This document shows, one piece after another, positions 5,874-26,419 of a stretch of 64,000 nucleotides of DNA (its first letter is position 1; the number at the start of each line of letters is the position of its first letter). The DNA is from Candidatus Aenigmatarchaeota archaeon (GTDB lineage Archaea; Aenigmatarchaeota; Aenigmatarchaeia; QMZS01), in the NCBI GenBank assembly GCA_016932615.1, contig JAFGCN010000009.1, forward strand, positions 146,167 through 210,166. Direction: 5' to 3'. A model generated the notes under the pieces. It did no database searches. It was not told the origin of the DNA and saw only the letters and a list, made by a program, of their open reading frames with translations. Made by a program: the position numbers and the translations under genes.

Positions 5874-5885
5874 AGTAGTTGTATT

Positions 5886-8800
5886 ATGGAGCAAAGACTC
5901 ATACTCTCTTTTGCCATTCTGTTGTCATTAGCTCTTATTCTGCCACCGGCACTTGCATTTGTTGGCCCCGTTTCTTACCTTACCGAGACGGTTTATGCAG
6001 ATTACTACGCGAATGGCACCGCTTCGTCTGACACATTTGCGCAGTGCAATGATAATGTAAACCCCTGTAAGTTCGGGTTTGTCGAAGTGGCGCTTCCTAA
6101 CGCTAATGACACGCTCCAGACCGTCAGGGTGACTCTTTCAGGCACGACAGGGACAAACCTTGCGCAGGCAAGAGGATATCAGGGAACCGTCACTTCATAT
6201 CCGACAATCTGGGGCAAGACCAAGATCTATGTAAATGATACCGTTTTCGGGGCAGACCAAAATTATTACAAGATTACTGACGGCGACCTTGCGCCTGCAA
6301 TAGTGCTGAATGTTACAAGCTACACGAATGACCGTGGCGGGTATGACTTTTATGATTATGACAATATCGGTCCCGGTGGGTCGAACAATACGATGAACTT
6401 CACGATTACTGCCTACAACCCTTCAACATCCACGGGGCTTGATGCAGTCACTATACTGATTCTGTTTGACACGGACACGAATGGCGGCGCTGATTCCCTG
6501 AACATTACCTCTGCCACGCCGGGAACTGTCCAGGATTCTGACAGCGACGGGTACAATGATCGCATAAACTGGACGGGCACAATTGCTGCATCAGGCACAC
6601 AGCAGTTTAATATCTCTGCAACGCTTATCGAAACAGTAAATATTGCAAATGGGGTCACAAACCTCACGCTTGACTACAACAACTCCCAAAAGGGGCTTAA
6701 GGCAATTTATAATAAGACTTCTGCCCTTACGGGCATAACAATAACCGCAGCTACTGCCCGGGGCTCCATCCGGCAGGGAATCGACATGGCCGAAAGAAGC
6801 GGCGGAGGCATATGGGATGCAAGGGGCTTTATCCACGTGCTGTCTTCGAACTCAAGCCAGGTGGGTGCAGGGACGATGCTCACATATAACATTTCCGATT
6901 GGCAGATTTACAATGTAAGTGTTACCACGGGTAACATGGACAATCTCCTCCAGAGCGGAACCTACACCCCTGCAAACTTTACTGCTAATTACGGGCGGCT
7001 TTATACCGATTCTGCTACGTTTTCCAGCAATAACTCTCGTGTCCAGATTGATGGAAATAAGCCGTACCTTGCCTCGTCATTTAACTGGAGTGTTTACTGG
7101 AATGATACTTACAAGTACTATGTTTCATACATAAACACGACTCTTGACCTTCCCACGCTTTACAAGGTCGACCAGATTCCTTCCCTTAGCTTGGGGGGAT
7201 ACCTGCTTGTGGGCTCTGCGACAACTGTCAATGTCACCTACATAAGCGAGTATCAGGGTGACATGGAAGCGACAATAAAGAACATGACTATCTTAAGCGT
7301 TGTGCCCAGGAACACGACACTGGGTGCGCAGAGAACCCCTCTTAACATCACGAACACCACAATTGTCGTTTCCTGGTGGAACACGACTTCCCTTGCCTGG
7401 GAAACAATAAAAACCGGAAATGGGACAAGCGACGGCGTTACCGTTACAATAACCCAGCCAAGCGGAGGGAGCAACGGTCTTGTCCAGGTCACTATTGCAA
7501 ACTTCAGCCAGACCAAGATTAACAAATACCTTGCCCAGGGAGAGAAAATACAGCTCTTCTATGGGGTTGACGATTCTACGGACCTTGAAACGGGAGACTC
7601 CTTCCAGTTTAGCGCAAACTCGACCATTACCTCCCTAAGCGGTACACCTGAGACAGAAGCGCCAAGCCCCCAGACTATAGCAAGCTCCGGCAGGCAACTT
7701 GTCGGTTACAAGGACTTGTTTGTCGCAAATCCTGCTACCCCGACCCTTGTTAACGGAACTTTGGTAGTTCAGGTTTTTGGAGGGGACATATCGAATATAA
7801 AGTTTATTGATTACGTCCCTAACGGAACAAACTTCAGCTGCTCTACAAATGCGATACTTTTCTACAATTCCACAGACGGAAGCACCTGGGCAACCTCTAC
7901 AGACATTTCCGTAAATGATACCGGCTACCTGACGCTTGCCGACGGCACGGTAGTCAGGTCCTGCGAGTACACAAGCGCAAATGGCCTTGGCTGGACCCTT
8001 GGAAGCAGCAAGGCGGTTAGGGTCATGTACCAGGTAAACATCACAAGCCCTGGGCTTTATGAGGTTCCAATGGGAATCGCTGGTTTCGACCCTGCCACAG
8101 GGCAAGGCATAAGCACTACCGTCTACGGTGTAGTGAGGATAAGCGTCCCTGAACCGGAAGTTCCGCCGATTATCACAGAGGGTGGCTTTTTGGTGGCCAA
8201 ATCAGTCCAGGTCGGAAACCCCGTTGTCTGGGTGAAGAGCTTTGAAGTGTTCAGTCCCAACTCCAAGTTTGTTGATGCTGAATTCTCAACTGAGGTCTTT
8301 GAGGACACCACTGCAGGTTATGTTTCCTATATTGACGAAATGGGTCAGGAAAAGAAAGAGGAGGTGGCTTTTGTCACAAAGGACGGAAAGCGCCAGATGG
8401 TCTGGTCAACAAAACTCTACCCTCAAGAGACAAGGAACTATGACCTGAGGATACTTACCCCTCCGGTTCTTGAAACTGACAGGGATATTGAGGTTCTTGG
8501 GGTTATTGAGGAGAAAATGGTTGAGCTAAGGATGTCTGTCTTCATGAGGAGCATGGCGCAGGAAGAGTACACCGATGTTCAGCTTAACCTGCCAATTTCC
8601 GCTTCAAGTGTCCTGAGCATAACTGATGGTGAAGGAAACCCTATTTCTTACACCGGTGACAGCACGATAAAGGCAATTATCCCTTCCTTTGGCCCTCAGG
8701 CCATAAAGGAATTGGTTATCCGTTACAAGCAGTCCTACCCAAAAATCATTGTAACTCCTAACCGGGACAGGTATGACCCCAACTCCATAGTCAGCCTAGA

Positions 8801-9194
8801 TATACTCGTCATTCATGGTGGCGAGGAAGTAAACTACCCTTACCTTGAAACAGAGGTTTACACTCCTGACCGGGATACAGTTTACGCAAACATACAGCAG
8901 CTTGACAAGCTTGAGCCGATAACAAAAACAAGCCTGTCCGAGAGTTTTACCGTGCCTTTAAACGCTCCTGCTGGAAGGTATATTGCAGAGAGCCGGCTTA
9001 GAAGCGACATGGCCACGCTTGCAACCGGCACAGGAAATTTTTATGTCGGGGGAGGCGGAAGCGCTGTGGGGAGCTGGATGGGTTACATTATGCTTCTTTT
9101 GGCGCTGGGCATACTCTACTTTGGCGTTAAGAGGATACGCAGCGAGACCCGCAGGGTCTCAGAGAGTAGCATTCCTGCGAGCCAGAATGCATAG
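5886..9194 (+). CDS. Large surface glycoprotein (paralog family A). Signal peptide, many N-x-S/T sequons, C-terminal TM anchor.
   Basis: Signal peptide MEQRLILSFAILLSLALILPPALA and C-terminal TM MGYIMLLLALGILYFGV. The N-terminal region is alignable with the 20493..23522(-) protein (VSYLTETV...FVEVALPNANDTLQTVRVTLSGTTGTNL...DSDSDGYNDRINW). Confidence 0.65.
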   Translation: MEQRLILSFAILLSLALILPPALAFVGPVSYLTETVYADYYANGTASSDTFAQCNDNVNPCKFGFVEVALPNANDTLQTVRVTLSGTTGTNLAQARGYQGTVTSYPTIWGKTKIYVNDTVFGADQNYYKITDGDLAPAIVLNVTSYTNDRGGYDFYDYDNIGPGGSNNTMNFTITAYNPSTSTGLDAVTILILFDTDTNGGADSLNITSATPGTVQDSDSDGYNDRINWTGTIAASGTQQFNISATLIETVNIANGVTNLTLDYNNSQKGLKAIYNKTSALTGITITAATARGSIRQGIDMAERSGGGIWDARGFIHVLSSNSSQVGAGTMLTYNISDWQIYNVSVTTGNMDNLLQSGTYTPANFTANYGRLYTDSATFSSNNSRVQIDGNKPYLASSFNWSVYWNDTYKYYVSYINTTLDLPTLYKVDQIPSLSLGGYLLVGSATTVNVTYISEYQGDMEATIKNMTILSVVPRNTTLGAQRTPLNITNTTIVVSWWNTTSLAWETIKTGNGTSDGVTVTITQPSGGSNGLVQVTIANFSQTKINKYLAQGEKIQLFYGVDDSTDLETGDSFQFSANSTITSLSGTPETEAPSPQTIASSGRQLVGYKDLFVANPATPTLVNGTLVVQVFGGDISNIKFIDYVPNGTNFSCSTNAILFYNSTDGSTWATSTDISVNDTGYLTLADGTVVRSCEYTSANGLGWTLGSSKAVRVMYQVNITSPGLYEVPMGIAGFDPATGQGISTTVYGVVRISVPEPEVPPIITEGGFLVAKSVQVGNPVVWVKSFEVFSPNSKFVDAEFSTEVFEDTTAGYVSYIDEMGQEKKEEVAFVTKDGKRQMVWSTKLYPQETRNYDLRILTPPVLETDRDIEVLGVIEEKMVELRMSVFMRSMAQEEYTDVQLNLPISASSVLSITDGEGNPISYTGDSTIKAIIPSFGPQAIKELVIRYKQSYPKIIVTPNRDRYDPNSIVSLDILVIHGGEEVNYPYLETEVYTPDRDTVYANIQQLDKLEPITKTSLSESFTVPLNAPAGRYIAESRLRSDMATLATGTGNFYVGGGGSAVGSWMGYIMLLLALGILYFGVKRIRSETRRVSESSIPASQNA

Positions 9195-9230
9195 AATAGT
9201 TTGGCCCAGGGAAAGTGAAATAGTGGTAAG

Positions 9231-9566
9231 ATGATAGATATAACGGGCTACGTGGCTCTTTTTGGGATAGACCTGTTCAATATTGCGCTGAGTAAGCTGG
9301 TCCTCATAATGTGCGTGATTGTCCTTCTGTTTCTTTTCGTCCTTGAAGCGGAATTCCGCCAGATAAGGAAACTTGCAAAAAAGATGGACGATGAGGAGCT
9401 GATACTTTCAAGGGACTTGAGGGAGCTTAGAGACTCGGTTAAGGAGCTTGGGTCATTTATGAGCGAGAACTACGGCATCGAAAAGCCGCTGGGAAATTCC
9501 TCAGAAAAGACAAAATCCGAAGAAGAGCAAAAGCCGCATGAGGATGCGCATAAAGAGGGGTCATGA
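9231..9566 (+). CDS. Small membrane protein with two N-terminal TM segments and a coiled-coil tail. First copy of a tandem paralog pair.
   Basis: Hydrophobic N-terminus, then EFRQIRKLAKKMDDEELILSRDLRELRDSVKEL. The ATGA overlap with the next gene suggests a co-translated pair. Confidence 0.45.
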   Translation: MIDITGYVALFGIDLFNIALSKLVLIMCVIVLLFLFVLEAEFRQIRKLAKKMDDEELILSRDLRELRDSVKELGSFMSENYGIEKPLGNSSEKTKSEEEQKPHEDAHKEGS

Positions 9567-9856
9567 TTATGGAAGACAACACCATAATGGTTTTTTTGGG
9601 GGTAATGTTCTGCACGCTGATATACGGCGCCTACAATGGGCTGGTTGTGCAGTATCCAAATGTTCTCCTCATACTCCTTGGGGCGGTCATAGTGTACCTT
9701 TTCCTCCTCGAAACAGAGCTAAAACAGCTTAAAAAAATCGCATTCAAGATGGATGATGAGGAATCGATGTTCACCAAGTCTGTGGGCGAGCTCAAGGCGG
9801 AAATAGAGTCCCTTAAAGAAACCGCGGTTTCCTCGAAAATGCATTCCAGGCGCTAA
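9563..9856 (+). CDS. Small membrane protein, paralog of 9231..9566.
   Basis: Same architecture and a shared motif (LKQLKKIAFKMDDEESMFTKSVGELKAEIESLKE, compared with RQIRKLAKKMDDEELILSRDLRELRDSVKEL). Confidence 0.45.
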   Translation: MIMEDNTIMVFLGVMFCTLIYGAYNGLVVQYPNVLLILLGAVIVYLFLLETELKQLKKIAFKMDDEESMFTKSVGELKAEIESLKETAVSSKMHSRR

Positions 9857-9872
9857 GAGCGGGGCTTTTGGC

Positions 9873-9898
9873 GATATAATTAAAAATGCATTTTTATT
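9873..9898 (+). promoter_or_regulatory. TATA-like A/T-rich box (gatataattaaaaatgcatttttatt) immediately upstream of the giant ATPase-fusion gene.
   Basis: The only A/T box in the short gap before the ATG at 9899. Confidence 0.3.
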
Positions 9899-12800
9899 AT
9901 GGCTAAAAGCACTACAAGTGTAATTGCTGTCTTTTTCATGTTCCTTTTGGCGGCAGTGCTCGAGGTTGGCCTCATATATTCCTTTGGGGGAGTGCAGCAA
10001 TCATTTACCCTGGACCTCAACACCTCTCTATTAAACTATTCTCTAAGCAGGTTCAGCGATGCCTCCACGACGCAGGAATTTGATTTCCAGAATGAGTCAG
10101 ATTACCATGCTTTCTATGTATCCCTTCCGAAAAATTCAACCGTGAGCGCATTTTCCCTGAACCTTACGGGGCTGATAACTACCGTTTACATAAGGGATGT
10201 GGTTTACCTTTCAGGCGTTGAAGTTGGGCATATGAGGGGGCTTTCAATCGGAAACGTCGTTGGTGGCTTGGAAAATGAGATTGTGTCCGGGCGGAGCACA
10301 GTGTCCCAAGCGCTTCCAAGCTTATTTGTAATCAACGGAAGCAGTGGGAGCAACATCTGGAATTACTCGCTTAGCCCTGTTTATGAGGTTGGCTCGACTG
10401 TTGTTGGAAATGTCACGGACAGTTCCGGAAACGAAGTAGTTTTTGGCTCTTCAAACAAGAAAGTGATGCTTTTGTCCTCTTCCGGCTCTCTTCTTTGGGA
10501 ATACGAGACGGGAAACGAAGTTTCCTCTGTTGCAATAGATTCACTTGGCTATTCCACAAACTACGTTGTTGCAGGCTCCAAGGACGAGAAGGTTTACGTC
10601 CTTAATTCCACAGGCGGGGTTTTGTGGAACTACTCGACAAATTCCTCCATTGCTTCAATCGCAGTAGGAGACCTTACCTCAGATGAGGGCAGGGAAATCG
10701 CAGTGGGCACAGGCACAAGAATAGTTATCCTTAACCGGACCGGGAGCAGGGTCTTTGAGTACAACTGGGCAAAAAGCATAAGCGCGCTTGCAGTCGGAAA
10801 TATCTCGGATGATGCTGGCGATGAGCTTGTGATTGGAGATATGGATTATCAGGTGGCGGCTTTTTCGGTAAGCGACTCAAACCTAACACTTCTCTGGAAT
10901 TATACTGCGGGGGCGCAGGTAAACAGCGTTTCGATTGGCGAAGCGGTAACCGACTTTTCCGGGAATGAAGTCGTTGCAGGAACCCATGAACCGAAGGTTT
11001 ATGCTTTCTCCAATAATGGGACAAAGATTTGGGAGTTTGTCACTCAGACTTTTGTTTTTACTGTTGCAATCGGAAACGTGACTGAAGATTCCGGAAACGA
11101 GGTTGGGGCTGGAGATGGCCACCTGTATATTTTCAACTTCGATTATTTCCCGACTAACCTGAAGCTTGATATCGGAAATGACTCTGTTGCGGACTGGAAC
11201 TCAAGCTATGTAAAACTCCGGTCTTCAGAGATTGCAAACGGCACCTCAGTAGTATCTGCAATAAACAGCTACCTTCAGAACAACTGCTCGCCCGATGCTT
11301 CCGGAAACTGCCTTGTCCCAATGGTTTTTCACTCGGACTTTAAGGGCAAGCTTAACCTGTCGGCTCTTAACGTGGTGTACTTCTACAATACCTCCTCTCT
11401 TTTTTCAAAGCCATTCGCAAATGTCTGGTCAAGGACCAGCGGAGTTTCTTCCGGAGAGCAGGTTGGAAACAGGACATACAACCTTTCATTTTCAGGAGTC
11501 CCTGCTGAAAATGTTTCCATAAGCTACCTGGCCGTTGACCCGAACGCGACAAGGTGCGATTTTAACAGAACGGCAAGGGCAGTTACAACCGTTTCTGGAA
11601 CTAAGGTGTGCGATATATCCTCGACGCCGCTTTTTTTCGCTGCAAACCAGTCGATAGACACTCCGGCAAGCACCTACTTTTTCTGGTATGAAGGTATGGG
11701 ATATGGAATCCCAATAGATATCCAAAACTCGACGGGATATTATTCTACCGGAGGGGCTCCCGAAAACTATAATTGGGCAGTCAACCTCAGCGTTAACGGG
11801 ACCAGCGAAGAATTTACAAACATTATACTCAACTGGACGGTAAACTATACGGGAATCAAGGGAGAAGAATTTCTGAAGGTAATGGACGCTTCCGCCTGCG
11901 ACCTGACACCAAACTTCACACAGGATGACTGCGACTCGGCAAGCCCGGCATACAACTTTACGAAAAACTGCACGAATTTCAACTACACTGTTTGCAAGAA
12001 GTACCTTGGCACGGCAATGTTTTTCAAGTGGGTACAGAGTGCGCTTCCCGCCTCCAGCCAGTCAATTTATGTTGCCGGCGGCTCGTATAACCTGAGGCCA
12101 AACCTGACCAATATGTCTGTTACCCCCAACTCAACCCTGTGGGGAGGAAACCTCACCTTCTCGGTTTATGTAAACGATACAGAGTCTGATTTTGTCAATG
12201 TAACTCTATGGGTAAAGAACCTGACCAACTGGTCAAGGGTCGCATCACTTATCACTACTGGCGGGCTTTTGGAATTCAATGTTTCCTCGAACAAGAGCTG
12301 GGTTGGAAATGCGGAATACCTGTTTGAGTACTACGACTATAATTCCACAGCCCCGGAGGGAATCCACTTTCCTGCAAACTCCACTTCAGGAAACCTTACT
12401 GTTGAAAGGCATCTTGCAGAGCTGGTCTATGATTCTTTTTCGCAGGGGAACGGCACGACTCTTTTTCGAAACAGCTCCACAGAGCTAGTATTGTTTGTAA
12501 ATGACACCAACCTTTCCGAAGGTGTGCCTTTCGCTTCCTGCGCACTCTGGGTGGGCGGGATGCTTTCAGGCACAAACCTTACAAACTCCAGCGGCTACTG
12601 CAGGATAGCTCTTCACCCCAATCAAAGCTTTAGCCCTGGACAGAAGAATTGGATAATGGGGATTTTAAGTGACCCTTCCTATGAGGATGCCAATTCGACA
12701 GGCCTTGACATTACGCTTCGTGGATGGATTCGGCCGAATGTAACAAACTCAGAAAACTTTTCCTATTATCGCGGGATTGCTTCGGTTTTCAGGGCCGAGT

Positions 12801-15800
12801 TGCTGGATGAGTTCGGCGGGATTGTTTCAACCGACCAGTACAGTTGTGCCTTTGACCTTAATGCTACAGGAATTGGGTCAAATAATACTCTGCTGGGAAA
12901 CTGCTCTGTTTACTATTCTGCGGGCTGCCTTGGAATAGATTCTGCAGTTGGCCAAAAACAACTTGGCGTGCAGATTGCCCGAACCGGGGGCGAGGATTAT
13001 TACAATATTTCTTCTGCAAGCGCAGGGCGAACGGTTATTCTCAGGGACCGCCTGAATCTCTCAATTGTCAGCCCAGAGGACCAGAATTATTATGTGGGGG
13101 AATTTGTTAACCTTACTGCTGTTGTGAATGACTCCTGTACAGTGCTTAGCGGGGTGTCGCTCAACTGGACGCTTGTGAGAAAGAGCGTTTTGAACGTAAC
13201 CTTCTCAGACCTTAGCGGGCAGGAACGGCAGAATTACACAGTGGTCCTTCCAGGGTCGCTTTTTTCTTCAGGGGGCTACAACCTCTCGGACTGGCGGGTA
13301 AACAATACGCATCTTTTGTTTGACGGAAGCGAAGTTCCGTTTTCCATTTACCAGTGGACAACTGCTTTCAAGACAACCGAGAACAAGAGCAAGATTTACA
13401 TGGATGATTACTCGGAGATTGTTTTTCGCGTGAACCTGTCTGCATGGCAGAGCAAGACTTATACTCTTAACCTGACCTGGCAGGAGCCGGTTCAGTATGG
13501 GAATCTAACTTACAATCTATTTAATGCAGATTTTGGCACAGGAAACTTTTCGGACTGGAGCCCTTCGATTTGCAACCGGATTGTTGGATGCAATGGAGAA
13601 GTTTCTTTTGACGGGAACGTAAGTTACGCGAATATTTCTGCAAATGACGGCTATACGGTGCTCAGCCAGAACCTGCCCGGATTCAACTTTTCTGAGCAGT
13701 TTTACATAAGGTACAAGGCCTGGGGGGACTTTAATTCCACGATGTACCCTGGGCAATTCTACATCCTTTTGGGGAACTATTCCTGCAACCTTACTTCGGA
13801 AATAAGGGCTCTGGCAGACGGGACTGGATATGTCTCCCTGCCTGAAAACTGGACGCTTTCCAACTGCACTGGTGCTTCAATTTCCTCTGCAAATAATGTT
13901 TCGATAGTGCTTCTCGACTTAGGCGACGGAGGTGGCGACCCGTCGAACGTCAATGCGCTTATCGACTATGTCTGCTTTGGAAACTCAAGCGGATCCTGCA
14001 TCGACTTTGATGAGGGGCAGTCACTTGCTCGGTCGCTTAACACAAAGAAGGAATTGGGCCTGGCAAGCAATTACACCTTTAGTGGAATGGATGAGGTCGG
14101 AAGGAGGAAGATTCTGGCGGAAGCGACTAGGGAATATTACTTGTCTGCAACATTAGGCACGCTTTTCAACCTCACGGGATTTTCAAAGCTCCAGGCCTTT
14201 AATGTAAGCTCGATTTATTGCACTTCAGATCCCCTCAATGGCTCAAGCTTTGTGTGCATGAGCAATGCCACTGTGGACCTTGTGGCGAAGGTTGGAAACA
14301 ATTTCACGGAAGAACCGATATACAACCACACAATTGTTTTTTCAAATAATTCCTCGTCCATTGGAAGCAACGCTTCCAATTTTGCCGGGCGGGCATACTT
14401 TGGCATGACACTTGGAAACGCGTCGAACTACACATTTTACGCAAACATTTCCTCACAGCCGGAAATTTTTTATAACTCAAGCAACTTGTCGGGCATGGAG
14501 ATATTCATACTTATCGACAGCGGGGTGACTACTGGAAACATTACGTTGAATTCAACAAGCGCAGTTGTCCAGAGTGTGGCACTCGACAGCAACTACACGC
14601 TCCCCCTTCTCTGGGAGCTCAACAATACAGGTCTCAGCGGCATGTATGACATTCGCGTAAGCACGAATAATATTTCCGGGATAGCTGTCTCCCCGGTAGT
14701 CTGCCTTCCACTGGCATCAGGGATGAACTGCACAAGGAACGTCAATGTAACCGTAACTTACCTGACGGCTCCGGGAAATTATACCTTGGTTTTCAATGCC
14801 AGCTGGCAGAATGGGGACGCAAGCAGGTCGAACACCACGAAAGGCCTTACGCTGGCTGTTGAAACTAGCAAGAAGGTCCGCTTTGAGGAAGAAAACGCGA
14901 CGCTTAACGTTCCAGTGACGACAACTGGCGCAATAAACCTTACTCTTTTGAACTATGGAAATATAAACCTCAGCAGCGTCTATTTCAACCTTTCCGGCAC
15001 GGATACAGAAGCAGTTATCAACTGGAGCAGCTTTTCAGCCAACTACACTAACCTGTCGCTTGGCGGCTCGTACAACCTGACTCTTCAGTTCCAGATTCCT
15101 GCAAATGCGACTACCCGGGAATACTGGCTTAATGTTACCGCCACGATACCGGGGTGCACAGGGAACTGCTCGGCGACTCTTCCTTTCATTTTGAACGTGA
15201 CGCCCCTTGACTGGAACATTGCGCCGGAAACAAACCTGTCAAAGGTAGTCGGGCTTAAGCAGGAGCTTAACAAATTTGGCGAGCTTGAGATTACAAATAC
15301 CCTTAACAGCACACTTGACTTCAACCTGACAATCACGCCAAATAACGGCACTTCTATAGAATTCCTGACGCTTAACAGAAGCATTTTCCAGACTACCTCT
15401 CAGGTAACCGTTGGGCCTGTTTCTTCCAGAGTAGTGGAAATTTTTTACAACACCAGCATTTCGCCAAACACTACCGGCACATACAACTACACGCTTCTTT
15501 TGGAGAGTAATGTGGCTAACATTACTCCTGCTTCAAGGTCGCTTGGGCTTTATTTTGAGGTCATAAACTTTACCGTAGACATTTACTCTCCGACAGAGTT
15601 AAGCCCCGCGGGCCAGCCAGACCCAGTCGAAGCAAATGAAACCCTGGTGATAGATGTCGAGGCAAAGCTGGGGGCGACTCCGCTTTCGAACAATATTTCC
15701 TGGAATGTTTCCGTGGGCGGGCAGGTGTGCCAGAACACGAGTGCCCCAGAGTACAATACTTCCACAAGCAGGTGGATTCTCCGCTGCGCTTACCCAGACA

Positions 15801-18800
15801 TCCCCCTAAATCCCATATACAATGACCTTGAGGTCACGGGAACTTATGAACTTCTTGGAGTTGACCTGTCGGACGTGGAGGAAAATGCCGTAATCTACAA
15901 GGATGTTCTTGAGCCATGGTTTTCGAATGTCAGCGCTTCTTTTGTCAATATGCTTTCTAACTTAAGCGAGGTTTCCTTTGAGGTGAACGTGACAGACAAC
16001 AAAAACATTTCCTCTGTCTGGGCGGTAGTCACCCGGCCGGATGGCGTGAATATCTCGCTTGGGGCAGGAAATTATTCTGCAACCCCAAGGTCATTTGGGG
16101 ATTTCGACAGCTACAAATATACATTTACAATGCACAACCCGAACCTGAACGGAGACTACGACATAACTGTCTATGCAATAGACACCGAAGCCCACCAGAA
16201 CAGCACAACCGGCTGGTTTGATGTATTTATCCCTGTGCAGGTCTGGGGAAACTTTACCAATTCGAAAGGAGAAGCCATAAGCGCGAACATGAGCTTTTAC
16301 AGGAGCGGATACAACCAGACACTGCCCTACCGAATGGAAAACAAAACCCTTGCAGGCGCTCCTTACAACTGGACGCTTCACAAGCGGCTTTATGACGTCA
16401 AGCTTAACATGTTTGGGCATGAGATGGTGGTGGCTGGCGCCGACTTCAACATAACGCAGAATGATACCCAAAATCCGTTTTTGTTCGACTATTTTGCAAA
16501 CAAGTCCTCGGAAGACATCTCGAATATCCTTCTGCCTGACACCGCAAACCGCCAGAGCATCCTTCTTGCCTTTGCACTTGAAAGTGACCTTAACCTTACG
16601 GGCGCAAACTTCTCGGTGCGCTACGGAGATGCCCTGAATGCAGGAAGCTTCTCGGAGGACCTTCTTGAGGTTTTCGTCTGCGAGGACTGGAATTACACTG
16701 CCAGGACGTGCAACTCCGGGGAATTCTCATATCTTGCCGGGACGTCTGCACTGTCTTCCTCGAACCCGGACATTTCCGCAAATGTGTTTAACTTCTCTTC
16801 AAGCCACCTTTCGGCATACGCAATCGCAGAAAGCTCATACCCATACAAGTGGGGAGTTGCTCCGGACTCGCCATCAACCCCTCCTGCGGCATCTGGTTCC
16901 AGTAGCAGCAGCGATTCCGGGGAGGATAGCGGCCCTGTAGTCGTGTGCGGAAACGGCGTCTGTGAGCTAGGGGAAAACTCCGACAACTGCCCAGAGGACT
17001 GCTCAAAGGATTTCCCTCTTGAGGTTGACACAAACCTTGGCGATGTCCGCCTTTTCCCGGGAGAAGGAAGGCAGTATTGGATATCACTGAAAAATAATTT
17101 CGGAAAAAACCTTTCAGTTTCTCTATCCTTAAGCGAAAACCTGCTGGAGTTTGTTTCGCTGGATGTGGATTCGCTTAACGTGACCGCTCACGAAAAGAAA
17201 ATACTTAACCTTTCGCTGAATGCCCCGCAAAACATAAGTGTTGGAACTTATGGAGGTTACGTAGTTCTCATGTCTGGAGAGTCGAAGCTAAGCCTTCCGG
17301 TCACCATAAGGATACTTGAGCTTCCGGCGGCTACTTTCACGGTGAACGTCAACATGAGGTCTGCCCAGATTGCTCCTGACGGAAAGCTAGAGTTCAATGT
17401 GCAGCTTACAAACCTTGGAGAGAAGGAGCTTTACCCAATAACGCTCACCTACTATGTAAAAGACCCGCAAAACAACGAAGTTTTCAGGTCCAACCGGACA
17501 AATATCACGCTTCAGACAACTGTCCTCGTGTCCGAAAGCTTTCCGATGAACCTGAGCGAAGAAGGAACTTACACGCTTGAGGTGTGGGCTAATTATTATG
17601 GAAAGAATATAGATATGGGTGTGGTGACTTTTGATGTCTTAAGGCCCCTTTTCCAGTCCCCTCTTACAGTGGGGCTTATTGTACTCGTTTTGGCGCTTAT
17701 CTGCCTTGTCCTTGGAACTTACCTGTACAGATACTACCGCATGTGGAGAAAGGAGAAGGAAAAGCAGCAGAGGTACCTTTACCCTCTTGACTATAATACT
17801 ATCCCAAAGGAGGGCTTCAACGTCGGAAAGTTTGCCGCAAGGGACAATGTGTTTTATTATGATCCTAGAGACCTTTCAACCCACCTGATAGCTGCAGGAG
17901 CAACGGGCTCGGGAAAGTCAGTTGCCGCTTCCCTTTTTGCCGAGGAAGCGCTTGACAAGAAGATTCCGGTAATCGTCTTTGACCCGACCAGCCAGTGGAC
18001 AGGGTTTGTAAAGCCGTGCAAGGACAATAACCTTCTCAGCAGGTACCCTCGATTTGGGATGACCGAGTTTGACATAAAGTCCTATCCGGGCCTTATCTAT
18101 GATGTCGAAACTCCGACTTTCAATCTGGATATAAAGAAGTTCATAAACCCGGGGGAGATTACCGTCTTCTGCCTGGGACGGCTTAAGCCTGGTGAATATG
18201 ATGTTGCCGTAAACAACATAATAGCCACTCTTTTCAAGGAGAGCTGGGAGGAGAGCACTGAGCTTAAGGTCATCCTTGTCTTTGATGAGGTGCACCGGCT
18301 TTTGGAAAAGTACGGCGGCTCTGGCGGCTACGTTGCTCTTGAAAAGGCTGCAAGGGAGTTCAGGAAGTGGGGAATCGGCGTAATCATGTGTTCCCAGGTC
18401 CTGGCAGATTTCAAGGAGGCAATAGCCGGTAACGTACTCACAGAAATTCAGCTTAACACCAAATCCCTTACAGATATCGACAAGGTTAAGACAAAGTACG
18501 GTGAGAAGTATGCTGAGAGGATTGCAAGAATGGGCGTCGGGGCCGGGCTTGTGCAGCACCCGAAGTACAATAACGGAAAGCCCTTCTTTATCGAGTTCAG
18601 GCCGACAAAGCATAACCCCCACAAGATTACCGATGAGGAGCTCGCATTATACAAGAATTACACGGAGCGGCTTGACAAGCTGTCAGCGAAGATAGAGGAG
18701 ATGAAGAAAAATGGAGTCTATACGGAGAACTATGAGATAGACTACAAGCTTGCCGTGGACAAGCTAAAAAGAGGAAACTTCAGGATGTCTGAAATATATA

Positions 18801-18835
18801 TTTCGTCCCTTGAAAGGGCCCTTGAAAAAGTATGA
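9899..18835 (+). CDS. Giant single-pass membrane protein. N-terminal signal anchor, ~2550-aa glycosylated ectodomain with beta-propeller-like repeats, TM helix, and a C-terminal cytoplasmic P-loop ATPase of the HerA/FtsK superfamily (DUF87-like).
   Basis: N-terminal anchor MAKSTTSVIAVFFMFLLAAVLEV. Repeated LWxY/VxxGSxD propeller-like units. TM LTVGLIVLVLALICLVLGTYLY followed by RYYRMWRKEKEKQQR (positive-inside). Walker A AAGATGSGKS (~nt 17895-17925) and Walker B ILVFDEVH (~nt 18270-18293), which are typical of HerA/DUF87/VirB4-type ATPases. Confidence 0.75.
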   Translation: MAKSTTSVIAVFFMFLLAAVLEVGLIYSFGGVQQSFTLDLNTSLLNYSLSRFSDASTTQEFDFQNESDYHAFYVSLPKNSTVSAFSLNLTGLITTVYIRDVVYLSGVEVGHMRGLSIGNVVGGLENEIVSGRSTVSQALPSLFVINGSSGSNIWNYSLSPVYEVGSTVVGNVTDSSGNEVVFGSSNKKVMLLSSSGSLLWEYETGNEVSSVAIDSLGYSTNYVVAGSKDEKVYVLNSTGGVLWNYSTNSSIASIAVGDLTSDEGREIAVGTGTRIVILNRTGSRVFEYNWAKSISALAVGNISDDAGDELVIGDMDYQVAAFSVSDSNLTLLWNYTAGAQVNSVSIGEAVTDFSGNEVVAGTHEPKVYAFSNNGTKIWEFVTQTFVFTVAIGNVTEDSGNEVGAGDGHLYIFNFDYFPTNLKLDIGNDSVADWNSSYVKLRSSEIANGTSVVSAINSYLQNNCSPDASGNCLVPMVFHSDFKGKLNLSALNVVYFYNTSSLFSKPFANVWSRTSGVSSGEQVGNRTYNLSFSGVPAENVSISYLAVDPNATRCDFNRTARAVTTVSGTKVCDISSTPLFFAANQSIDTPASTYFFWYEGMGYGIPIDIQNSTGYYSTGGAPENYNWAVNLSVNGTSEEFTNIILNWTVNYTGIKGEEFLKVMDASACDLTPNFTQDDCDSASPAYNFTKNCTNFNYTVCKKYLGTAMFFKWVQSALPASSQSIYVAGGSYNLRPNLTNMSVTPNSTLWGGNLTFSVYVNDTESDFVNVTLWVKNLTNWSRVASLITTGGLLEFNVSSNKSWVGNAEYLFEYYDYNSTAPEGIHFPANSTSGNLTVERHLAELVYDSFSQGNGTTLFRNSSTELVLFVNDTNLSEGVPFASCALWVGGMLSGTNLTNSSGYCRIALHPNQSFSPGQKNWIMGILSDPSYEDANSTGLDITLRGWIRPNVTNSENFSYYRGIASVFRAELLDEFGGIVSTDQYSCAFDLNATGIGSNNTLLGNCSVYYSAGCLGIDSAVGQKQLGVQIARTGGEDYYNISSASAGRTVILRDRLNLSIVSPEDQNYYVGEFVNLTAVVNDSCTVLSGVSLNWTLVRKSVLNVTFSDLSGQERQNYTVVLPGSLFSSGGYNLSDWRVNNTHLLFDGSEVPFSIYQWTTAFKTTENKSKIYMDDYSEIVFRVNLSAWQSKTYTLNLTWQEPVQYGNLTYNLFNADFGTGNFSDWSPSICNRIVGCNGEVSFDGNVSYANISANDGYTVLSQNLPGFNFSEQFYIRYKAWGDFNSTMYPGQFYILLGNYSCNLTSEIRALADGTGYVSLPENWTLSNCTGASISSANNVSIVLLDLGDGGGDPSNVNALIDYVCFGNSSGSCIDFDEGQSLARSLNTKKELGLASNYTFSGMDEVGRRKILAEATREYYLSATLGTLFNLTGFSKLQAFNVSSIYCTSDPLNGSSFVCMSNATVDLVAKVGNNFTEEPIYNHTIVFSNNSSSIGSNASNFAGRAYFGMTLGNASNYTFYANISSQPEIFYNSSNLSGMEIFILIDSGVTTGNITLNSTSAVVQSVALDSNYTLPLLWELNNTGLSGMYDIRVSTNNISGIAVSPVVCLPLASGMNCTRNVNVTVTYLTAPGNYTLVFNASWQNGDASRSNTTKGLTLAVETSKKVRFEEENATLNVPVTTTGAINLTLLNYGNINLSSVYFNLSGTDTEAVINWSSFSANYTNLSLGGSYNLTLQFQIPANATTREYWLNVTATIPGCTGNCSATLPFILNVTPLDWNIAPETNLSKVVGLKQELNKFGELEITNTLNSTLDFNLTITPNNGTSIEFLTLNRSIFQTTSQVTVGPVSSRVVEIFYNTSISPNTTGTYNYTLLLESNVANITPASRSLGLYFEVINFTVDIYSPTELSPAGQPDPVEANETLVIDVEAKLGATPLSNNISWNVSVGGQVCQNTSAPEYNTSTSRWILRCAYPDIPLNPIYNDLEVTGTYELLGVDLSDVEENAVIYKDVLEPWFSNVSASFVNMLSNLSEVSFEVNVTDNKNISSVWAVVTRPDGVNISLGAGNYSATPRSFGDFDSYKYTFTMHNPNLNGDYDITVYAIDTEAHQNSTTGWFDVFIPVQVWGNFTNSKGEAISANMSFYRSGYNQTLPYRMENKTLAGAPYNWTLHKRLYDVKLNMFGHEMVVAGADFNITQNDTQNPFLFDYFANKSSEDISNILLPDTANRQSILLAFALESDLNLTGANFSVRYGDALNAGSFSEDLLEVFVCEDWNYTARTCNSGEFSYLAGTSALSSSNPDISANVFNFSSSHLSAYAIAESSYPYKWGVAPDSPSTPPAASGSSSSSDSGEDSGPVVVCGNGVCELGENSDNCPEDCSKDFPLEVDTNLGDVRLFPGEGRQYWISLKNNFGKNLSVSLSLSENLLEFVSLDVDSLNVTAHEKKILNLSLNAPQNISVGTYGGYVVLMSGESKLSLPVTIRILELPAATFTVNVNMRSAQIAPDGKLEFNVQLTNLGEKELYPITLTYYVKDPQNNEVFRSNRTNITLQTTVLVSESFPMNLSEEGTYTLEVWANYYGKNIDMGVVTFDVLRPLFQSPLTVGLIVLVLALICLVLGTYLYRYYRMWRKEKEKQQRYLYPLDYNTIPKEGFNVGKFAARDNVFYYDPRDLSTHLIAAGATGSGKSVAASLFAEEALDKKIPVIVFDPTSQWTGFVKPCKDNNLLSRYPRFGMTEFDIKSYPGLIYDVETPTFNLDIKKFINPGEITVFCLGRLKPGEYDVAVNNIIATLFKESWEESTELKVILVFDEVHRLLEKYGGSGGYVALEKAAREFRKWGIGVIMCSQVLADFKEAIAGNVLTEIQLNTKSLTDIDKVKTKYGEKYAERIARMGVGAGLVQHPKYNNGKPFFIEFRPTKHNPHKITDEELALYKNYTERLDKLSAKIEEMKKNGVYTENYEIDYKLAVDKLKRGNFRMSEIYISSLERALEKV

Positions 18836-18875
18836 TGCCGAAATGCCGAAATAACCGCGACAACTCCTATCTTGA

Positions 18876-20441
18876 GTGGGTTGTTGGCGGATTTTGATTA
18901 TGTCTGGAGAAGAATCTTCCGGGGGAAGCGGCGGAGACGATAACGTTATCTCCGCAGAAGAGTTCAGGGACCTTGAGTCTGATGAAAAGAAAAGCGAAAG
19001 CCAAAAGGGAGGGCTCTTTGGCATGTTTAAAAAGACCCCCCCGCCTTCAGCTTCCGTGCCTCACGTCGGAGGCGGAGATTCGGAAAAAGACCCTTTGGTT
19101 GAAGTGAGCATGAAAGTCGAGCGCCTCTCAAGTCGGTTTGAGATGCTTGAGGAGGCAAGAAAGCATACTGACGAGCGCCTGTTTGAAATGGCTGAGAAGA
19201 TTGGCGAGCTTCGCTCAACAGTTGTCGAGCGAGACAGGGCGTTCAATGATATCGCCTCCAAGTTCGAAAGGATTTCTGACATTACCGAGGGCCTTGAGCC
19301 GGACAAAATCAGAAAGGACCTTGCAAAAAAAGACCAGCAGATTGAGCAGGTCAAAGCCCAGGTCGAGTCGGACTCGGAGAAAATTGCTGTTTCTCTCAAG
19401 AAAATCAAGGACATGAATGACATAATTGACCAGATAAAGGGCTTTAAGGACCTGGTGTCTGTTGCCGACGAGCTTGGAAAGAAGATAAAAATCGTGGAAG
19501 GCCTCAAGGCGGAAACCGAAAAGACCGCAGGGAAGTTTGAGAGCCGGCTTTACCAGTTTAATGAGTCCCTCAGCCGCTTACAGGGAAGCATCACTAAGGT
19601 TGAGGCAAACGACGAAACCTTGAAGGAGCTTTTGAGAACTGTCGATGCCCTTTCGCTTCGCGTCGAAAAGGCGCTTAGCAAAACAGACTTTGATTCAAGC
19701 GAGAAAGCGCTTGACAGCAAGTTTTCTGAGCTAAGGTTTGACACTGAGTCTAAGCTCCAGAAGGTCCTGGATGCTTTTAAGAAGGTGGATGAAGTGACGG
19801 GCGAAGCCGCTTACAAGGCGCTTAACAAAAAAATCGATGACTTTCAGAGGGATTACTCCCAGTACAAAAAAGACCTCGAGGCGCGGCTTTTGAAAATGCC
19901 TGCTTCCTCAAAATCCTCTGCCCAGATTGCTGCTTCCCCGGATGGCGGTTATGAAGAGGACATTCCTGACAAGAAGCTGGGCGAGGGTGGGGTTTTTGGA
20001 GACACTGAATTAATGCTTGTCGAGAAAATGAAGAAGATGATAGAGGATAACAACGAAAAACACAGCCAGCACATGGCGGACCTTGAGCTGAGGATTCTGG
20101 AGCTTTCGAAAAGCGTTTACCATAGGATAGAAAGGCGCGTGGTTAAGGAATCTAAGACTACGAGAGATGCAGTCAGAAACCTGGTAGCTTCCGGGTCTGA
20201 AGAATCTGGATTTTTTTCAAAGCGCGCTTCTATCCCGGTTCAGGCCCGCCCGGATGAGCCGATCCTGGATATGTCCTCCCTGGTAAAGGATATTTATTTC
20301 TACCTTGACTCAGGCAACTATTCCGAAGCCAAGGCAGGGTTCATAAAACTGCTCTCGATCTACGAGCGCCAAGAGTCCAGCAACCCATTTATCCTTGCAA
20401 AAATAACCGACCTTCACAAAAGGATAAAGCAGATTAGCTAA
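18876..20441 (+). CDS. Acidic coiled-coil protein directly downstream of the giant ATPase gene, possibly in the same operon.
   Basis: E/K-rich heptad-like sequence throughout. The listed start at 18876 is GTG; an ATG at 18900 (MSGEESSGG) is an alternative start. Confidence 0.55.
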   Translation: MGCWRILIMSGEESSGGSGGDDNVISAEEFRDLESDEKKSESQKGGLFGMFKKTPPPSASVPHVGGGDSEKDPLVEVSMKVERLSSRFEMLEEARKHTDERLFEMAEKIGELRSTVVERDRAFNDIASKFERISDITEGLEPDKIRKDLAKKDQQIEQVKAQVESDSEKIAVSLKKIKDMNDIIDQIKGFKDLVSVADELGKKIKIVEGLKAETEKTAGKFESRLYQFNESLSRLQGSITKVEANDETLKELLRTVDALSLRVEKALSKTDFDSSEKALDSKFSELRFDTESKLQKVLDAFKKVDEVTGEAAYKALNKKIDDFQRDYSQYKKDLEARLLKMPASSKSSAQIAASPDGGYEEDIPDKKLGEGGVFGDTELMLVEKMKKMIEDNNEKHSQHMADLELRILELSKSVYHRIERRVVKESKTTRDAVRNLVASGSEESGFFSKRASIPVQARPDEPILDMSSLVKDIYFYLDSGNYSEAKAGFIKLLSIYERQESSNPFILAKITDLHKRIKQIS

Positions 20442-20492
20442 ACCCGGGGGGTTTCCCTGCTTTTCTTACCCTTTTTAAACAATTCCATATCG

Positions 20493-23400
20493 CTATTTCC
20501 GGGATATCTTTTTTATCTCTTCATCCAGCGTTTTTCTGCGGTAAATTTTTTTGCAGGCGATTACAAGAGCGATGACAAGCAGCATCAGGAAAATTAACCA
20601 GGGCAACTCCATATTTTCCGAGCAGTTTATTTCGATTTTTTCCTCTGAGGCAAGTATTGTCTTAAAGCCGGACCTGTAGAATGCGTAAAGAGTGTAGTTT
20701 CCGGTTTCACACTTGAAGAGAGGTATCTTAAGCTCTGTTCGGGTTGGAATATTTTCAAGAGCCATAATATCTGCGTAGATGAGCCCTTTTGACTCGCCCG
20801 GGCCAACTAATTCAATCTCAAGGTAGCCGTGCGTATCCTGCGGGACAACTATCATGTTTCCGGAAATATCTTCCCTGCATTGGTAGCTTTTCCGGTCAAG
20901 ATTGATTATTATCTTTGGAGGCCTTTCCCAGGTGGTGAGGTTTACGGTTACGTTCTCGCCTGCTTTGATGAGTGGTATCTGGACGGTTATCTCCCCGTTT
21001 CTGAAGGTATAGTTATAGTTACAAGCTATCACATCATCGGCATAGCTGATAAAGGTCACATTTTCGTAATCAAGCTTTGCAAAGTTTTCGAGCGTGATAA
21101 GTGTGTTGAACTTTATGCTTCCGTTTGTTATGCTTATCATCTCTGAGTCTCTTTTCACTTCGAGCACCGGGGCAGTTACTGCCTCCACGAAGTAGGTCTG
21201 CGTTTCGTTTTTTCCAATTTCGACAAGGAAGTCTATGCGCCCTTTTTCGTAGAGGTGGGCGATTTCATGAGTGCTCTGGCCTTCCGAGAGCTTTATGTGA
21301 GAGCTAAGTATTTCCGGAAGCACTTTTGTGGAGTATCCCTGCTTTACGCTTCTCTCGTTTGGGTTTTTGACTTCAATTGACTTGAGCCACTTTACCGGAA
21401 CCCCCACCTGGACTCCAAACTTCTCCCAGGAACTTTCCTTTACTATCAGGTTTTTAAGTGTCCAGTGCTCGCGGCGCACGGTTGTTTGGACGTCTTCAAA
21501 GAAATAGCTGTCTTCGTAATAGTTGTAGCCATATGCCCGGGTTATGAGCGTGCTGGTTCCAAGAGGAAGTTCAGCAAAGTAGGTTATTGTGACCTTGTCG
21601 TCATGCTGCAGCGTGAATGTTTCTGTCGGAGGGGAAACAATTTCCGCAATGTACTCCCTGTAGCTTTGGTTTTCAATTCTTTTTATCCCTCCCTCACGTA
21701 GGCTTGCGTTCAGAAGGTAAAATATGTTGTTTCTTTCAAGGACAATCTTTATTTTTCTCGTGTCCAGCTCGGAATTTTCCGGGGAGTAAATGAAAAAGAC
21801 CGGGCTTCTTAGGCCTTTGCTTCCGGTGTCAACTACTTTGTACGTTACATTGTTGAAAAGAAGAGATTCAGTGATGAACAAGTCCTGGGCGTCGAGCCGC
21901 ATTATCTCTAGAATGGGTTTTAAGGGCATACCTGTCCCACCGCCTCCGCCTCCTGAAGAGGGCGGCTTTCCTGTACCGGGTACAAGGATTTCCCTAAGGA
22001 GTGTCTTTTTGACGGGAGTTCCGCTGAGCGTTTTTGCTGTGGCTTCTTCCGTGAAGAAGTATGTGGCTGTAGACTCCTGATTTCCTTTTGCAAGCGTATA
22101 CTGCAAATAGACTACTGAGTTAAGGTCCAGGGATAGGTTTTTGACAGTTATTTCGTAATTCCCGGAGTTGATGTTGACGCTTGAGATGTTTAGTTCTGTT
22201 ATGTTTGAGCCATCCCGTTTGAATGCAGCAAGGTCTGACAAATCCCACTCGCTGCTATAGGTCGTGTTGAAAATGGCTTCCCCGAGCTTTAGGTTTGCGT
22301 GTCCAATGTGCCGTATTTCGTCAGTTACACCCAACAAAACGCCGTCATCATTGTTCTGAATGAGGTTAATTCTTTTGTCGATAGCTATGTCCATCTGGTA
22401 GAGTGTTGGCATAGCCATGGCCTCTTCCACAATCCCCCGGTAAATCGAGCTGCCCCACATAACTTTCCAGTCAAAGAAGGCGGAGTAGTATATGTTTTTG
22501 CTTATGGACTCGTCGAATGCTCCTCCCGAAGGAACATCAGTGTAGTATTCGCTTGTGTACGCCGTGTCGCCAGGGACAAGGTTAGTGCTTGTCGCGCCTT
22601 CTGCTGCTGGGGTGTCCGAGCCGATCTCATAAAGGGACCAGCCGTCAACAATGTAGACTGTTCCGTATGCGATGTTTTTCATAAACCCCCTGACCGTCCA
22701 GTTCATTTTTGGCGTTATCTGCACGCCCTGCCTTATGTTTGCCCGGGAGTACCTGTTTGAAATGGTCGTTCCGCTAAAGGTCGTTCCCTGGGTATAATTT
22801 GTGCTGGTCTGGCTGGAGTCGGTATCCACGCTTAGAAGGTCTGCCTCGTAGTTATGCCCCCCGCTTATGTTTGCCACTATCGTGATGTTTGCGGACCGGT
22901 GCAGGTTTCCAAGCCACGCAGCTTTATCGTTGTAGCCGTCAAGGTCGCTGTCGGATATCTGCACGGCCCCGTTCGTGGCATTGGCTTCAAAAATGTGCAT
23001 GGAGTCCGCCTGAAAATAGGTGTTTCTTCTGGCCTGAAAGGTCAGGGACACGTCGTTCATCGGGTCAGTTGCGTTCAGCATTATGAAGAAGGTAACTGTG
23101 TTCTCTCCGGGGCCAAGGTCACTTCCCCCAAGGAAGTTAGAAATGTTCATTTGCAGGGAGATGTTTTTGCTTGAGTTGAACCAGTAGCTTGTCGTGGCGT
23201 TGCTTGCATTAGTGAATACATAAAGTTTCGTCCGGTCACCCGCTAGGGGAGAAGCTGCAACGGCTGCAAAAGAAGTAGTGTTCTGAAGATTTGTGCCGTT
23301 TGTCGAAGAAAGCGTTATGACAATGTTCTGCAGGACATCCCGGTTGTTTGCAAGCTCGACTTCAACACTTCCGATATTACTTTCCGAAATGGTTGTTCCG

Positions 23401-23522
23401 TCATAATTCACGCTTTTTGCCACTTTTTCTATCAAGTATGAGGTGGGGTTTGCGTAAACAGTGTTAAGGGCAAGCAGCCCGACAATAAGGATAAAAACGG
23501 CTCTTAAAGCGCCATTTGCCAT
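20493..23522 (-). CDS. Large surface glycoprotein (paralog family A, inverted copy). Signal peptide, Gly run, C-terminal TM.
   Basis: Signal MANGALRAVFILIVGLLALNTVYA and C-terminal TM LPWLIFLMLLVIALVIA. The N-terminus parallels the 5886..9194 protein (TSYLIEKV...SVEVELANNRDVLQNIVITLSSTNGTNL...DSDLDGYNDKAAW). Confidence 0.65.
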   Translation of the reverse strand: MANGALRAVFILIVGLLALNTVYANPTSYLIEKVAKSVNYDGTTISESNIGSVEVELANNRDVLQNIVITLSSTNGTNLQNTTSFAAVAASPLAGDRTKLYVFTNASNATTSYWFNSSKNISLQMNISNFLGGSDLGPGENTVTFFIMLNATDPMNDVSLTFQARRNTYFQADSMHIFEANATNGAVQISDSDLDGYNDKAAWLGNLHRSANITIVANISGGHNYEADLLSVDTDSSQTSTNYTQGTTFSGTTISNRYSRANIRQGVQITPKMNWTVRGFMKNIAYGTVYIVDGWSLYEIGSDTPAAEGATSTNLVPGDTAYTSEYYTDVPSGGAFDESISKNIYYSAFFDWKVMWGSSIYRGIVEEAMAMPTLYQMDIAIDKRINLIQNNDDGVLLGVTDEIRHIGHANLKLGEAIFNTTYSSEWDLSDLAAFKRDGSNITELNISSVNINSGNYEITVKNLSLDLNSVVYLQYTLAKGNQESTATYFFTEEATAKTLSGTPVKKTLLREILVPGTGKPPSSGGGGGGTGMPLKPILEIMRLDAQDLFITESLLFNNVTYKVVDTGSKGLRSPVFFIYSPENSELDTRKIKIVLERNNIFYLLNASLREGGIKRIENQSYREYIAEIVSPPTETFTLQHDDKVTITYFAELPLGTSTLITRAYGYNYYEDSYFFEDVQTTVRREHWTLKNLIVKESSWEKFGVQVGVPVKWLKSIEVKNPNERSVKQGYSTKVLPEILSSHIKLSEGQSTHEIAHLYEKGRIDFLVEIGKNETQTYFVEAVTAPVLEVKRDSEMISITNGSIKFNTLITLENFAKLDYENVTFISYADDVIACNYNYTFRNGEITVQIPLIKAGENVTVNLTTWERPPKIIINLDRKSYQCREDISGNMIVVPQDTHGYLEIELVGPGESKGLIYADIMALENIPTRTELKIPLFKCETGNYTLYAFYRSGFKTILASEEKIEINCSENMELPWLIFLMLLVIALVIACKKIYRRKTLDEEIKKISRK

Positions 23523-26416: not shown

Positions 26417-26419
26417 ATT

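Follow-up and report, generated by a model that had tools for sequence, protein, structure and literature searches.

Paralogous surface proteins A and B accompany a subfamily of SPEARE-type giant ATPase genes in Aenigmarchaeota

DPANN archaea spend their lives attached to host cells, and the ways in which they bind the host and exchange material with it are not yet settled. SPEARE-type giant proteins, so far treated as single polypeptides of Nanohaloarchaeota, are leading candidates for this contact. In this study, we closely examined a 64,000-nucleotide (nt) stretch of Candidatus Aenigmatarchaeota archaeon contig JAFGCN010000009.1 (here called the window; all locus coordinates are positions within it), in which two related surface-protein genes, here named paralog A and paralog B, enclose a gene for a giant ATPase fusion protein of the SPEARE type. 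A and B were found to be full-length paralogs of old origin, and their family is found next to one Aenigmarchaeota subfamily of such giants.

The locus and the two paralogs

A co-directional array on the plus strand spans 105..20441 and comprises the genes for a LamG-domain protein, a 181-amino-acid (aa) protein, A, two small proteins (tm1 and tm2), the giant protein and a coiled-coil protein (CC). B follows on the minus strand. The features are as follows.

105..5327, plus strand: LamG surface protein heading the array, 1740 aa, with two Laminin_G_3 domains, DUF2341 and Big_13 (Pfam) and a C-terminal transmembrane segment (aa 1718-1739)
5328..5873, plus strand: 181-aa protein with a signal peptide and a C-terminal transmembrane segment
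5886..9194, plus strand: paralog A, 1102 aa, with a signal peptide, a C-terminal transmembrane segment (aa 1059-1081), a cytoplasmic tail of ~20 aa and 35 sequons
5913..7172, plus strand: region of A alignable with B at the N-terminal, membrane-distal end (A aa 10-429)
8205..9167, plus strand: region of A alignable with B at the C-terminal, membrane-proximal end (A aa 774-1094)
9231..9566, plus strand: tm1, 111 aa, an N-terminal transmembrane segment followed by a cytoplasmic coiled coil
9563..9856, plus strand: tm2, 97 aa, tandem paralog of tm1; its start overlaps the tm1 stop by 4 nt
9899..18835, plus strand: giant SPEARE-type protein, 2978 aa
17573..18835, plus strand: transmembrane and ATPase module of the giant (Walker A GATGSGKS, Walker B VFDEVHRL)
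18876..20441, plus strand: CC, cytoplasmic coiled-coil protein of 521 aa without a transmembrane segment; GTG start at 18876, first ATG at 18897
20442..20492, no strand: convergent spacer between CC and B, 51 nt, with a small GC hairpin and then a T-rich run (pattern match only)
20493..23522, minus strand: paralog B, 1009 aa, convergent with CC, with a signal peptide, a C-terminal transmembrane segment (aa 969-995), a short cytoplasmic tail and 28 sequons
23523..23579, no strand: divergent, A/T-rich spacer of 57 nt between B and a PKD-domain gene at 23580

Paralogs A and B are 100% identical to JW727_02840 and JW727_02865, respectively, of a Candidatus Aenigmarchaeota metagenome-assembled genome (MAG). 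An initial annotation of this DNA had placed both open reading frames (ORFs) at exactly these coordinates, with a tandem pair of small membrane/coiled-coil genes, a giant ATPase fusion and the 521-aa CC between them, and we found the same arrangement. The signal peptide and C-terminal transmembrane segment that it assigned to both proteins are borne out by hydropathy, with a signal-like N terminus and one C-terminal transmembrane segment in each.

The alignable N-terminal region described there is present, and all of the motifs quoted for it (SYLxE, VEVxLxN..D.LQ, TLS.T.GTNL and DSDxDGYND...W) occur in the A/B alignment; the similarity additionally covers a C-terminal block and, by profiles, the full length. 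BLASTP aligned aa 10-429 of A with aa 8-378 of B (26% identity, E 6e-27) and, colinear with this block, aa 774-1094 with aa 704-1009 (26% identity, E 8e-18). Comparison of profiles from 13 A-orthologs and 7 B-orthologs aligned 933 columns (19-1095 versus 20-1007; probability 100%, E 1e-102), i.e., essentially end to end, indicating that the whole gene was duplicated. In a control of 200 shuffles that kept the local composition (20-aa blocks), the pairwise A-B similarity gave z scores of 29 at the N terminus, 33 at the C terminus and 2.6 in the middle. The similarity at the two ends is thus more than a shared N-glycosylation-rich composition, the trivial explanation that the initial annotation had raised against itself. 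Judged from their sequences, A and B are full-length, colinear paralogs.

A neighbor-joining tree of 22 homologs puts the orthologs of A (P0001-13) in one clade and those of B (P0014-20) in another, with P0021 and P0022 basal on the B side. Identity between A and B in the C-terminal block is 27-31% within genomes versus 26-31% between genomes, and neither this comparison nor the tree gave a sign of concerted evolution or gene conversion. A search of positions 5000-24000 with an 11-nt seed revealed no inverted nucleotide repeat linking the two genes, only short chance pairs. A recent inversion or conversion between the copies, which had been proposed for examination, did not take place: protein identity is only ~26%, no inverted repeat joins the genes at the DNA level, the clades are separate, and the copies within a genome resemble each other no more than copies from different genomes. 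The duplication is therefore old, and the paralogs are "inverted" in gene orientation but not at the nucleotide level. Among close relatives, A is more conserved than B: identity is 55-62% for full-length A (54-61% for its C-terminal part) and 38-48% for B, with 42-46% for the ectodomain of the giant.

Members of the A/B family comprise ~1,000-1,140 aa, with a signal peptide, a colinear all-beta ectodomain, conserved N- and C-terminal blocks and a single C-terminal transmembrane segment. Conservation is found at the membrane-distal and membrane-proximal ends, and the transmembrane segments are not notably conserved. Scans of Pfam, NCBIfam, PADLOC and PHROGs assigned no family to A or B, and the A/B alignment profile had no match among PDB sequences at E<=1. 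A profile search of 1.84 billion representative proteins yielded ~166 A/B matches, of which the weaker ones share only the middle domain, also present in LamG-type giants. The family appears restricted to Aenigmarchaeota.

An AlphaFold2 model of A built from 22 sequences (pLDDT 78) is all-beta, with roughly ten beta-sandwich domains and one terminal transmembrane helix; the N-terminal 445 aa modeled alone reached a pLDDT of 84 and a pTM of 0.71. A and B are accordingly predicted to be N-glycosylated, all-beta type-I membrane proteins. Foldseek matched the full-length model to generic multi-Ig chains (CD109, alpha-2-macroglobulin, mastigoneme, integrin alpha), with TM-scores of 0.09-0.12, and the N-terminal domain to double beta-sandwiches resembling mu-homology domains (target-normalised TM-score 0.41-0.53, root mean square deviation 6-9 A). 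We judged the mu-homology-like match to be generic as well. No S-layer protein was present among the 50 matches listed by E-value for either model. Since the matches are generic only, function is not readable from the structure.

The giant gene and gene order in relatives

The giant has hydrophobic segments at aa 2-32 (signal or transmembrane) and 2583-2612 (transmembrane) in hydropathy analysis, and 166 of its sequons lie before the C-terminal transmembrane segment versus 1 after it (6.4 versus 0.28 per 100 aa). It is thus predicted to be mostly extracytoplasmic, with one transmembrane segment near the C terminus and a cytoplasmic tail. A PQQ-like beta-propeller was identified at aa 147-415 (Pfam: PQQ_2, E 1.1e-12; Beta-prop_ACSF4, E 2.1e-24), and the cytoplasmic part consists of an ATPase of the HerA/DUF87/FtsK/VirB4 superfamily and a helical tail. 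When its final 420 aa were compared with the 9,409-aa giant encoded by Ca. Nanohalococcus occultus (CP104395.1), they matched the C terminus of that protein over 409 aa with 46% identity (E 9e-139), and they are 49% identical to AOV94739.1 (AQV86_02330) of strain SG9, which Hamm et al. 2019 (PMC6642349) listed as an SG9 SPEARE protein. Cytoplasmic domains of this kind had been noted in Aenigmarchaeota by the same authors. Reva et al. 2023 (PMC10266531) use the term "giant membrane-anchored extracellular proteins" for the nanohaloarchaeal proteins that Hamm et al. 2019 named SPEARE. The published Nanohalococcus locus also encodes a homolog of CC (31% identity over 225 aa, E 5e-26). Because the published architecture, a homologous transmembrane and ATPase tail and a CC homolog in a published locus coincide, sequence comparison identifies the gene between A and B as encoding a SPEARE-type protein. 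Its ATPase module is under stronger constraint than any other part of the locus (identity among close relatives is 70-80%, versus the 42-46% of the ectodomain), which fits an active motor.

We then compared gene order in related genomes. One genome per species was scanned with the transmembrane and ATPase module, which gave >557 matches in species genomes of many DPANN phyla, and the best 80 of these >557 relatives were analyzed (L014-L093). These 80 loci come from Aenigm-, Woese-, Pace-, Nanohalo-, Parv-, Undin- and Altiarchaeota and from Hydrothermarchaeota. CC lies directly downstream of the giant ATPase in ~70 of them (e.g., L050, L061 and L088). The conserved core across DPANN is a giant, membrane-anchored HerA-like ATPase with a downstream cytoplasmic coiled-coil protein, a partner that is not mentioned in the available text of Reva et al. 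2023 (PMC10266531).

Beyond this core, every ~2,950-aa Aenigmarchaeota giant whose upstream flank can be read (~20 species) has an A/B-family gene as its immediate neighbor, and among the loci analyzed the family is confined to this subfamily. The order A, tm, giant was observed in L001, L003, L011, L014, L015, L018, L019, L021 and L024 as well as in L025, L029, L032, L034, L035, L037 and L043. The position of A beside tm and the giant is thereby kept across ~16 species, even where identity falls to 34-40%, and the spacers measure 0-150 nt; in the window, A, tm1/tm2 and the 9-kb giant gene are separated by 12-42 nt or overlap. The tm1 orthologs sit between A and the giant gene, as one copy in L001, L011, L015 and L018 and as two copies in L003 and L014.

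A convergent B gene after CC was found in the window's own clade only (8 species). The relatives with this layout are L005/L014, L015, L016, L017, L018, L009/L019 and L020, the closest ones by ATPase identity (69-79%). The junction between B and CC is short in every convergent locus, while the outer flank of B varies, with ribosomal genes in L009/L019 and nothing in common with the window in L015, L018 and L020. B therefore belongs with the giant/CC block and not with the pilus-like genes that adjoin it in the window. Other layouts occur elsewhere: B-like and A-like genes stand in tandem upstream of the giant in L011, and a B-like gene lies divergent and directly upstream of the giant in L028, L031, L038 and L063, where no A gene was seen. 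The initial annotation had read the symmetry as the mark of a co-evolving module rather than of independent surface genes. Conserved adjacency to the giant in ~20 species supports the module; the symmetry is specific to one clade of 8 species and carries no signal, because layouts differ in the loci just named and in L037 and L043 and no inverted repeat is present. The convergent bracket is a stable, lineage-specific gene order, probably without a mechanistic role of its own, and in practical terms the inverted layout has no DNA-level significance.

No A/B neighbor was found for the subfamily of 2,200-aa giants. In A's position, directly upstream of these giants, lies a protein of ~660 aa with a signal peptide and a C-terminal transmembrane segment (L050:125-4615, two in tandem; L054:2505-4529; L060:1644-3644; L061:2520-4529; L065:2583-4592; L084:2666-4654). 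These proteins were rejected as A/B homologs, since profile-profile comparison gave no convincing homology (hhalign probability 38%).

Among the neighboring genes, tm1 and tm2 are 39% identical over 51 aa (E 1e-9), have a common motif of the form LE.EF+Q.+...KK.DDEE and matched no family in Pfam, NCBIfam, PADLOC and PHROGs scans. The LamG protein is homologous to A between aa 1372 and 1698 (middle of A, aa 515-822; BLASTP E 1e-10), and its homologs adjoin giant/CC genes in many loci. The 181-aa protein is 32% identical to its ortholog in L001 and is similar to the end nearest the membrane in the LamG protein and in giant orthologs. There seems to have been domain shuffling among these surface proteins. 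A second giant surface protein is encoded at 39557..45565 (2002 aa, DUF2341 and CARDB); between it and the 105..5327 protein, the DUF2341 regions show 34% identity.

Next to B, a type IV pilus/archaellum-like block occupies 23580..33728. It contains the PKD-domain protein (with an N-terminal transmembrane segment), a 580-aa transmembrane protein, a 760-aa FlaI/TadA-like T2SSE ATPase on the minus strand, and two multi-transmembrane proteins (527 and 601 aa) without a family match. The ATPase is 85-87% identical in L005/L014. As the block is conserved in the nearest relative only, it is not part of the module of A, B and the giant.

Several further observations were made in the window and in relatives. 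In L009/L019, the giant is split at ~3565-3712 and CC at ~12100-12200, each into two ORFs, which may reflect a frameshift, decay or an error in the assembly. The complete Aenigmarchaeota chromosome CP070801.1 (L044:9506-11248) has its ATPase module split into ORFs of 287 aa and 293 aa, with no giant ectodomain upstream. Contigs with the DPANN-type ATPase in L024, L056, L058, L067 and L068 are labeled Methanosarcinales, Heimdallarchaeota or Methanobacteriota in MAG records; these labels may stem from mis-binning of symbiont contigs into host bins. Finally, a tRNA-Thr(CGU) gene was placed at 39376..39447 (72 nt) by ARAGORN and at 39348..39447 (100 nt, model positions 1-71) by the Rfam model, a discrepancy that may be due to an intron or an extended 5' part.

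Possible roles of the A/B family

We moderately favor an accessory role for A and B as non-redundant surface components of a SPEARE-type contact apparatus, in which they would serve as stalk, sheath or co-adhesin. A would be co-transcribed with the LamG adhesin, the small transmembrane/coiled-coil proteins, the giant and CC, and B would be transcribed separately; B likely has a promoter of its own, because a 57-nt A/T-rich divergent spacer separates it from the PKD-domain gene. Both proteins would be anchored in the membrane beside the giant and would act as structural partners of the host-contact apparatus, with the ATPase of the giant powering translocation. Their conserved ends would bind a conserved partner, i.e., each other, the giant or the cell's own envelope; conservation of the membrane-distal and membrane-proximal ends fits such a partner better than variable host ligands. 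Non-redundant partners also seem to fit better than the alternative docking or adhesin partners that the initial annotation had suggested, if these are taken as interchangeable, with both copies retained, old and distinct.

Several points weigh against this role. The functional case for A and B comes from gene neighborhood, and their signal peptide, C-terminal anchor, glycosylation and Ig-like chain suit an S-layer protein equally well. The fold searches, with generic multi-Ig or mu-homology-like beta-sandwiches only, yielded no functional clue. B is not an obligatory neighbor, since no B gene lies within 10 kb downstream in L037 and L043. The basal homologs P0021 and P0022 each face a LamG-type giant convergently, in a housekeeping-gene setting; no ATPase gene is visible there, although both contigs end inside the LamG-type giant gene. 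The 67-aa genes that follow P0021 and P0022 were considered as tm1-like and rejected, as they encode proteins with two transmembrane segments.

A more far-reaching version, which we put forward only tentatively, is that A, B, tm1/tm2, the LamG adhesin, the giant and CC form one contact-site secretion or uptake machine, in which an A/B hetero-oligomer would build a stalk or sheath outside the cell around the ectodomain of the giant, and that the Aenigmarchaeota locus is a "split" SPEARE. If true, the contact machine would be unrelated in composition to a type IV secretion system (T4SS) or to Ced, and the locus, as the split version of the single 6,000-9,400-aa SPEARE proteins of Nanohaloarchaeota, would offer a tractable parts list.

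A and B could instead be general envelope glycoproteins of the S-layer type in a surface-protein island with the LamG, DUF2341, PKD and pilus genes, clustered through shared regulation, export or glycosylation and not through a dedicated pairing with the giant; this is the main rival, which we consider rather unlikely. Archaeal S-layer glycoproteins typically have a signal peptide, a C-terminal transmembrane anchor, many sequons and a chain of beta-sandwich domains. A and B have all of these, although the features are generic and not diagnostic. The window is also rich in other large surface-protein genes and has the type IV pilus-like ATPase near B, and the housekeeping surroundings of P0021 and P0022 would suit an envelope protein. 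However, A is tightly packed with tm1/tm2 and the giant in a position kept in ~16 species, the family is not found beside the 2,200-aa giants, and the junction of B with CC persists despite the varying outer flank. In addition, neither the PDB profile search nor the Foldseek matches listed revealed a sequence or structural match to any solved S-layer protein.

Improbable in our view is that A, B or both are substrates or cargo-related factors of the ATPase, for instance exported or mounted through its action, or form a membrane conduit with tm1/tm2, instead of being passive partners. ATPases of the FtsK/HerA/VirB4 class drive substrate translocation, and several proteins with a single transmembrane segment (A, B, tm1, tm2 and the 181-aa protein, s181) surround one ATPase that itself has a single such segment. 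On the other hand, the signal peptides of A and B are of the ordinary Sec type and a dedicated exporter is not required, their transmembrane segments are not notably conserved, and the core of giant and CC is widespread without A/B. A DNA-level inverted duplication, with A and B as arms that would promote inversion of the 11-kb block between them, gene conversion or antigenic switching, would account for homologous genes in opposite orientation around a block, but it is effectively refuted by the repeat search, protein identity, tree and within-genome comparison described above and by the same block orientation in 8/8 species with the window's layout.

Comparison with known systems

Like Ced (CedA1/A2/B) and T4SS (VirB4/VirD4), the window combines a membrane-associated P-loop ATPase of the same superfamily with small membrane proteins. 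In contrast to these systems, the ATPase scored far below the cut-offs of the family-specific models (CedD 35.9 bits versus 600, CedB 20.8 versus 700, TraC 25.1 versus 567, VirB4_plasma 24.8 versus 590), no VirB4 N-terminal domain was detected in it, and family scans of the window proteins found no VirB, Trb or CedA homolog or other T4SS/Ced component among the neighboring genes. A defense-system or viral identity of the ATPase was also rejected, with weak superfamily-level matches only (PADLOC, PHROGs).

The best Foldseek matches of A, the integrin alpha leg and the MG-domain chains of alpha-2-macroglobulin and CD109, are likewise strings of beta-sandwiches, and integrin alpha shares with A the type-I membrane topology and the short cytoplasmic tail. 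With TM-scores of 0.09-0.2 and 7-10% identity, the match is therefore to a generic domain type only; A has no thioester domain, beta-propeller head or MIDAS domain. S-layer glycoproteins such as Haloferax csg resemble A and B in the signal peptide, dense sequons, Ig-like beta-sandwich chain and C-terminal transmembrane segment, and differ in that A lies within an operon-like array with a giant ATPase gene. Sulfolobus SlaA/SlaB are also two envelope proteins encoded in one neighborhood, whereas A and B are paralogs of each other and both membrane anchored.

The closest known relative is SPEARE itself, a protein type that is already known. As described in PMC6642349 and PMC10266531, these proteins have, like the giant of the window, a signal peptide, a PQQ-like beta-propeller, a long adhesin-like ectodomain, a transmembrane segment, a VirB4/TraG/HerA-like ATPase and a helical tail, and the Ca. 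Nanohalococcus locus likewise has a homologous coiled-coil gene downstream of the giant. The window giant is three times shorter than the 9,409-aa protein, and Pfam detected no LamG domain in it, whereas SPEARE ectodomains carry one or more according to Hamm et al. 2019 (PMC6642349); the two Laminin_G_3 domains of the window sit on the separate upstream protein (105..5327). According to Reva et al. 2023 (PMC10266531), the gene that comes right after a nanohaloarchaeal giant encodes another, short ATPase belonging to the giant's family. No such gene directly follows the window giant, where CC takes its place. Tandem short ATPases were found in other lineages only (L042, L064, L067, L068 and L094), namely after giants of >3,700 aa in the Woesearchaeota-type loci L042, L064, L067 and L068 (620-730 aa, at ~11100-13500) and as a short second ATPase of the giant's family at L094:10001-11872.

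The paralogs A and B as well as tm1/tm2 are not mentioned for published SPEARE loci in the available text of PMC6642349 or PMC10266531, and our literature searches found no description of the A/B family. With respect to that text, the A/B family thus appears to be new, and so do its constant linkage to one SPEARE subfamily and the "split" organization with a separate LamG adhesin, A, B, tm1/2 and CC. To the single giant polypeptide of the published systems, one Aenigmarchaeota subfamily adds fixed separate partners, namely A, B, one or two small transmembrane/coiled-coil proteins and a LamG adhesin, and a vague "giant adhesin" becomes a list of candidate subunits.

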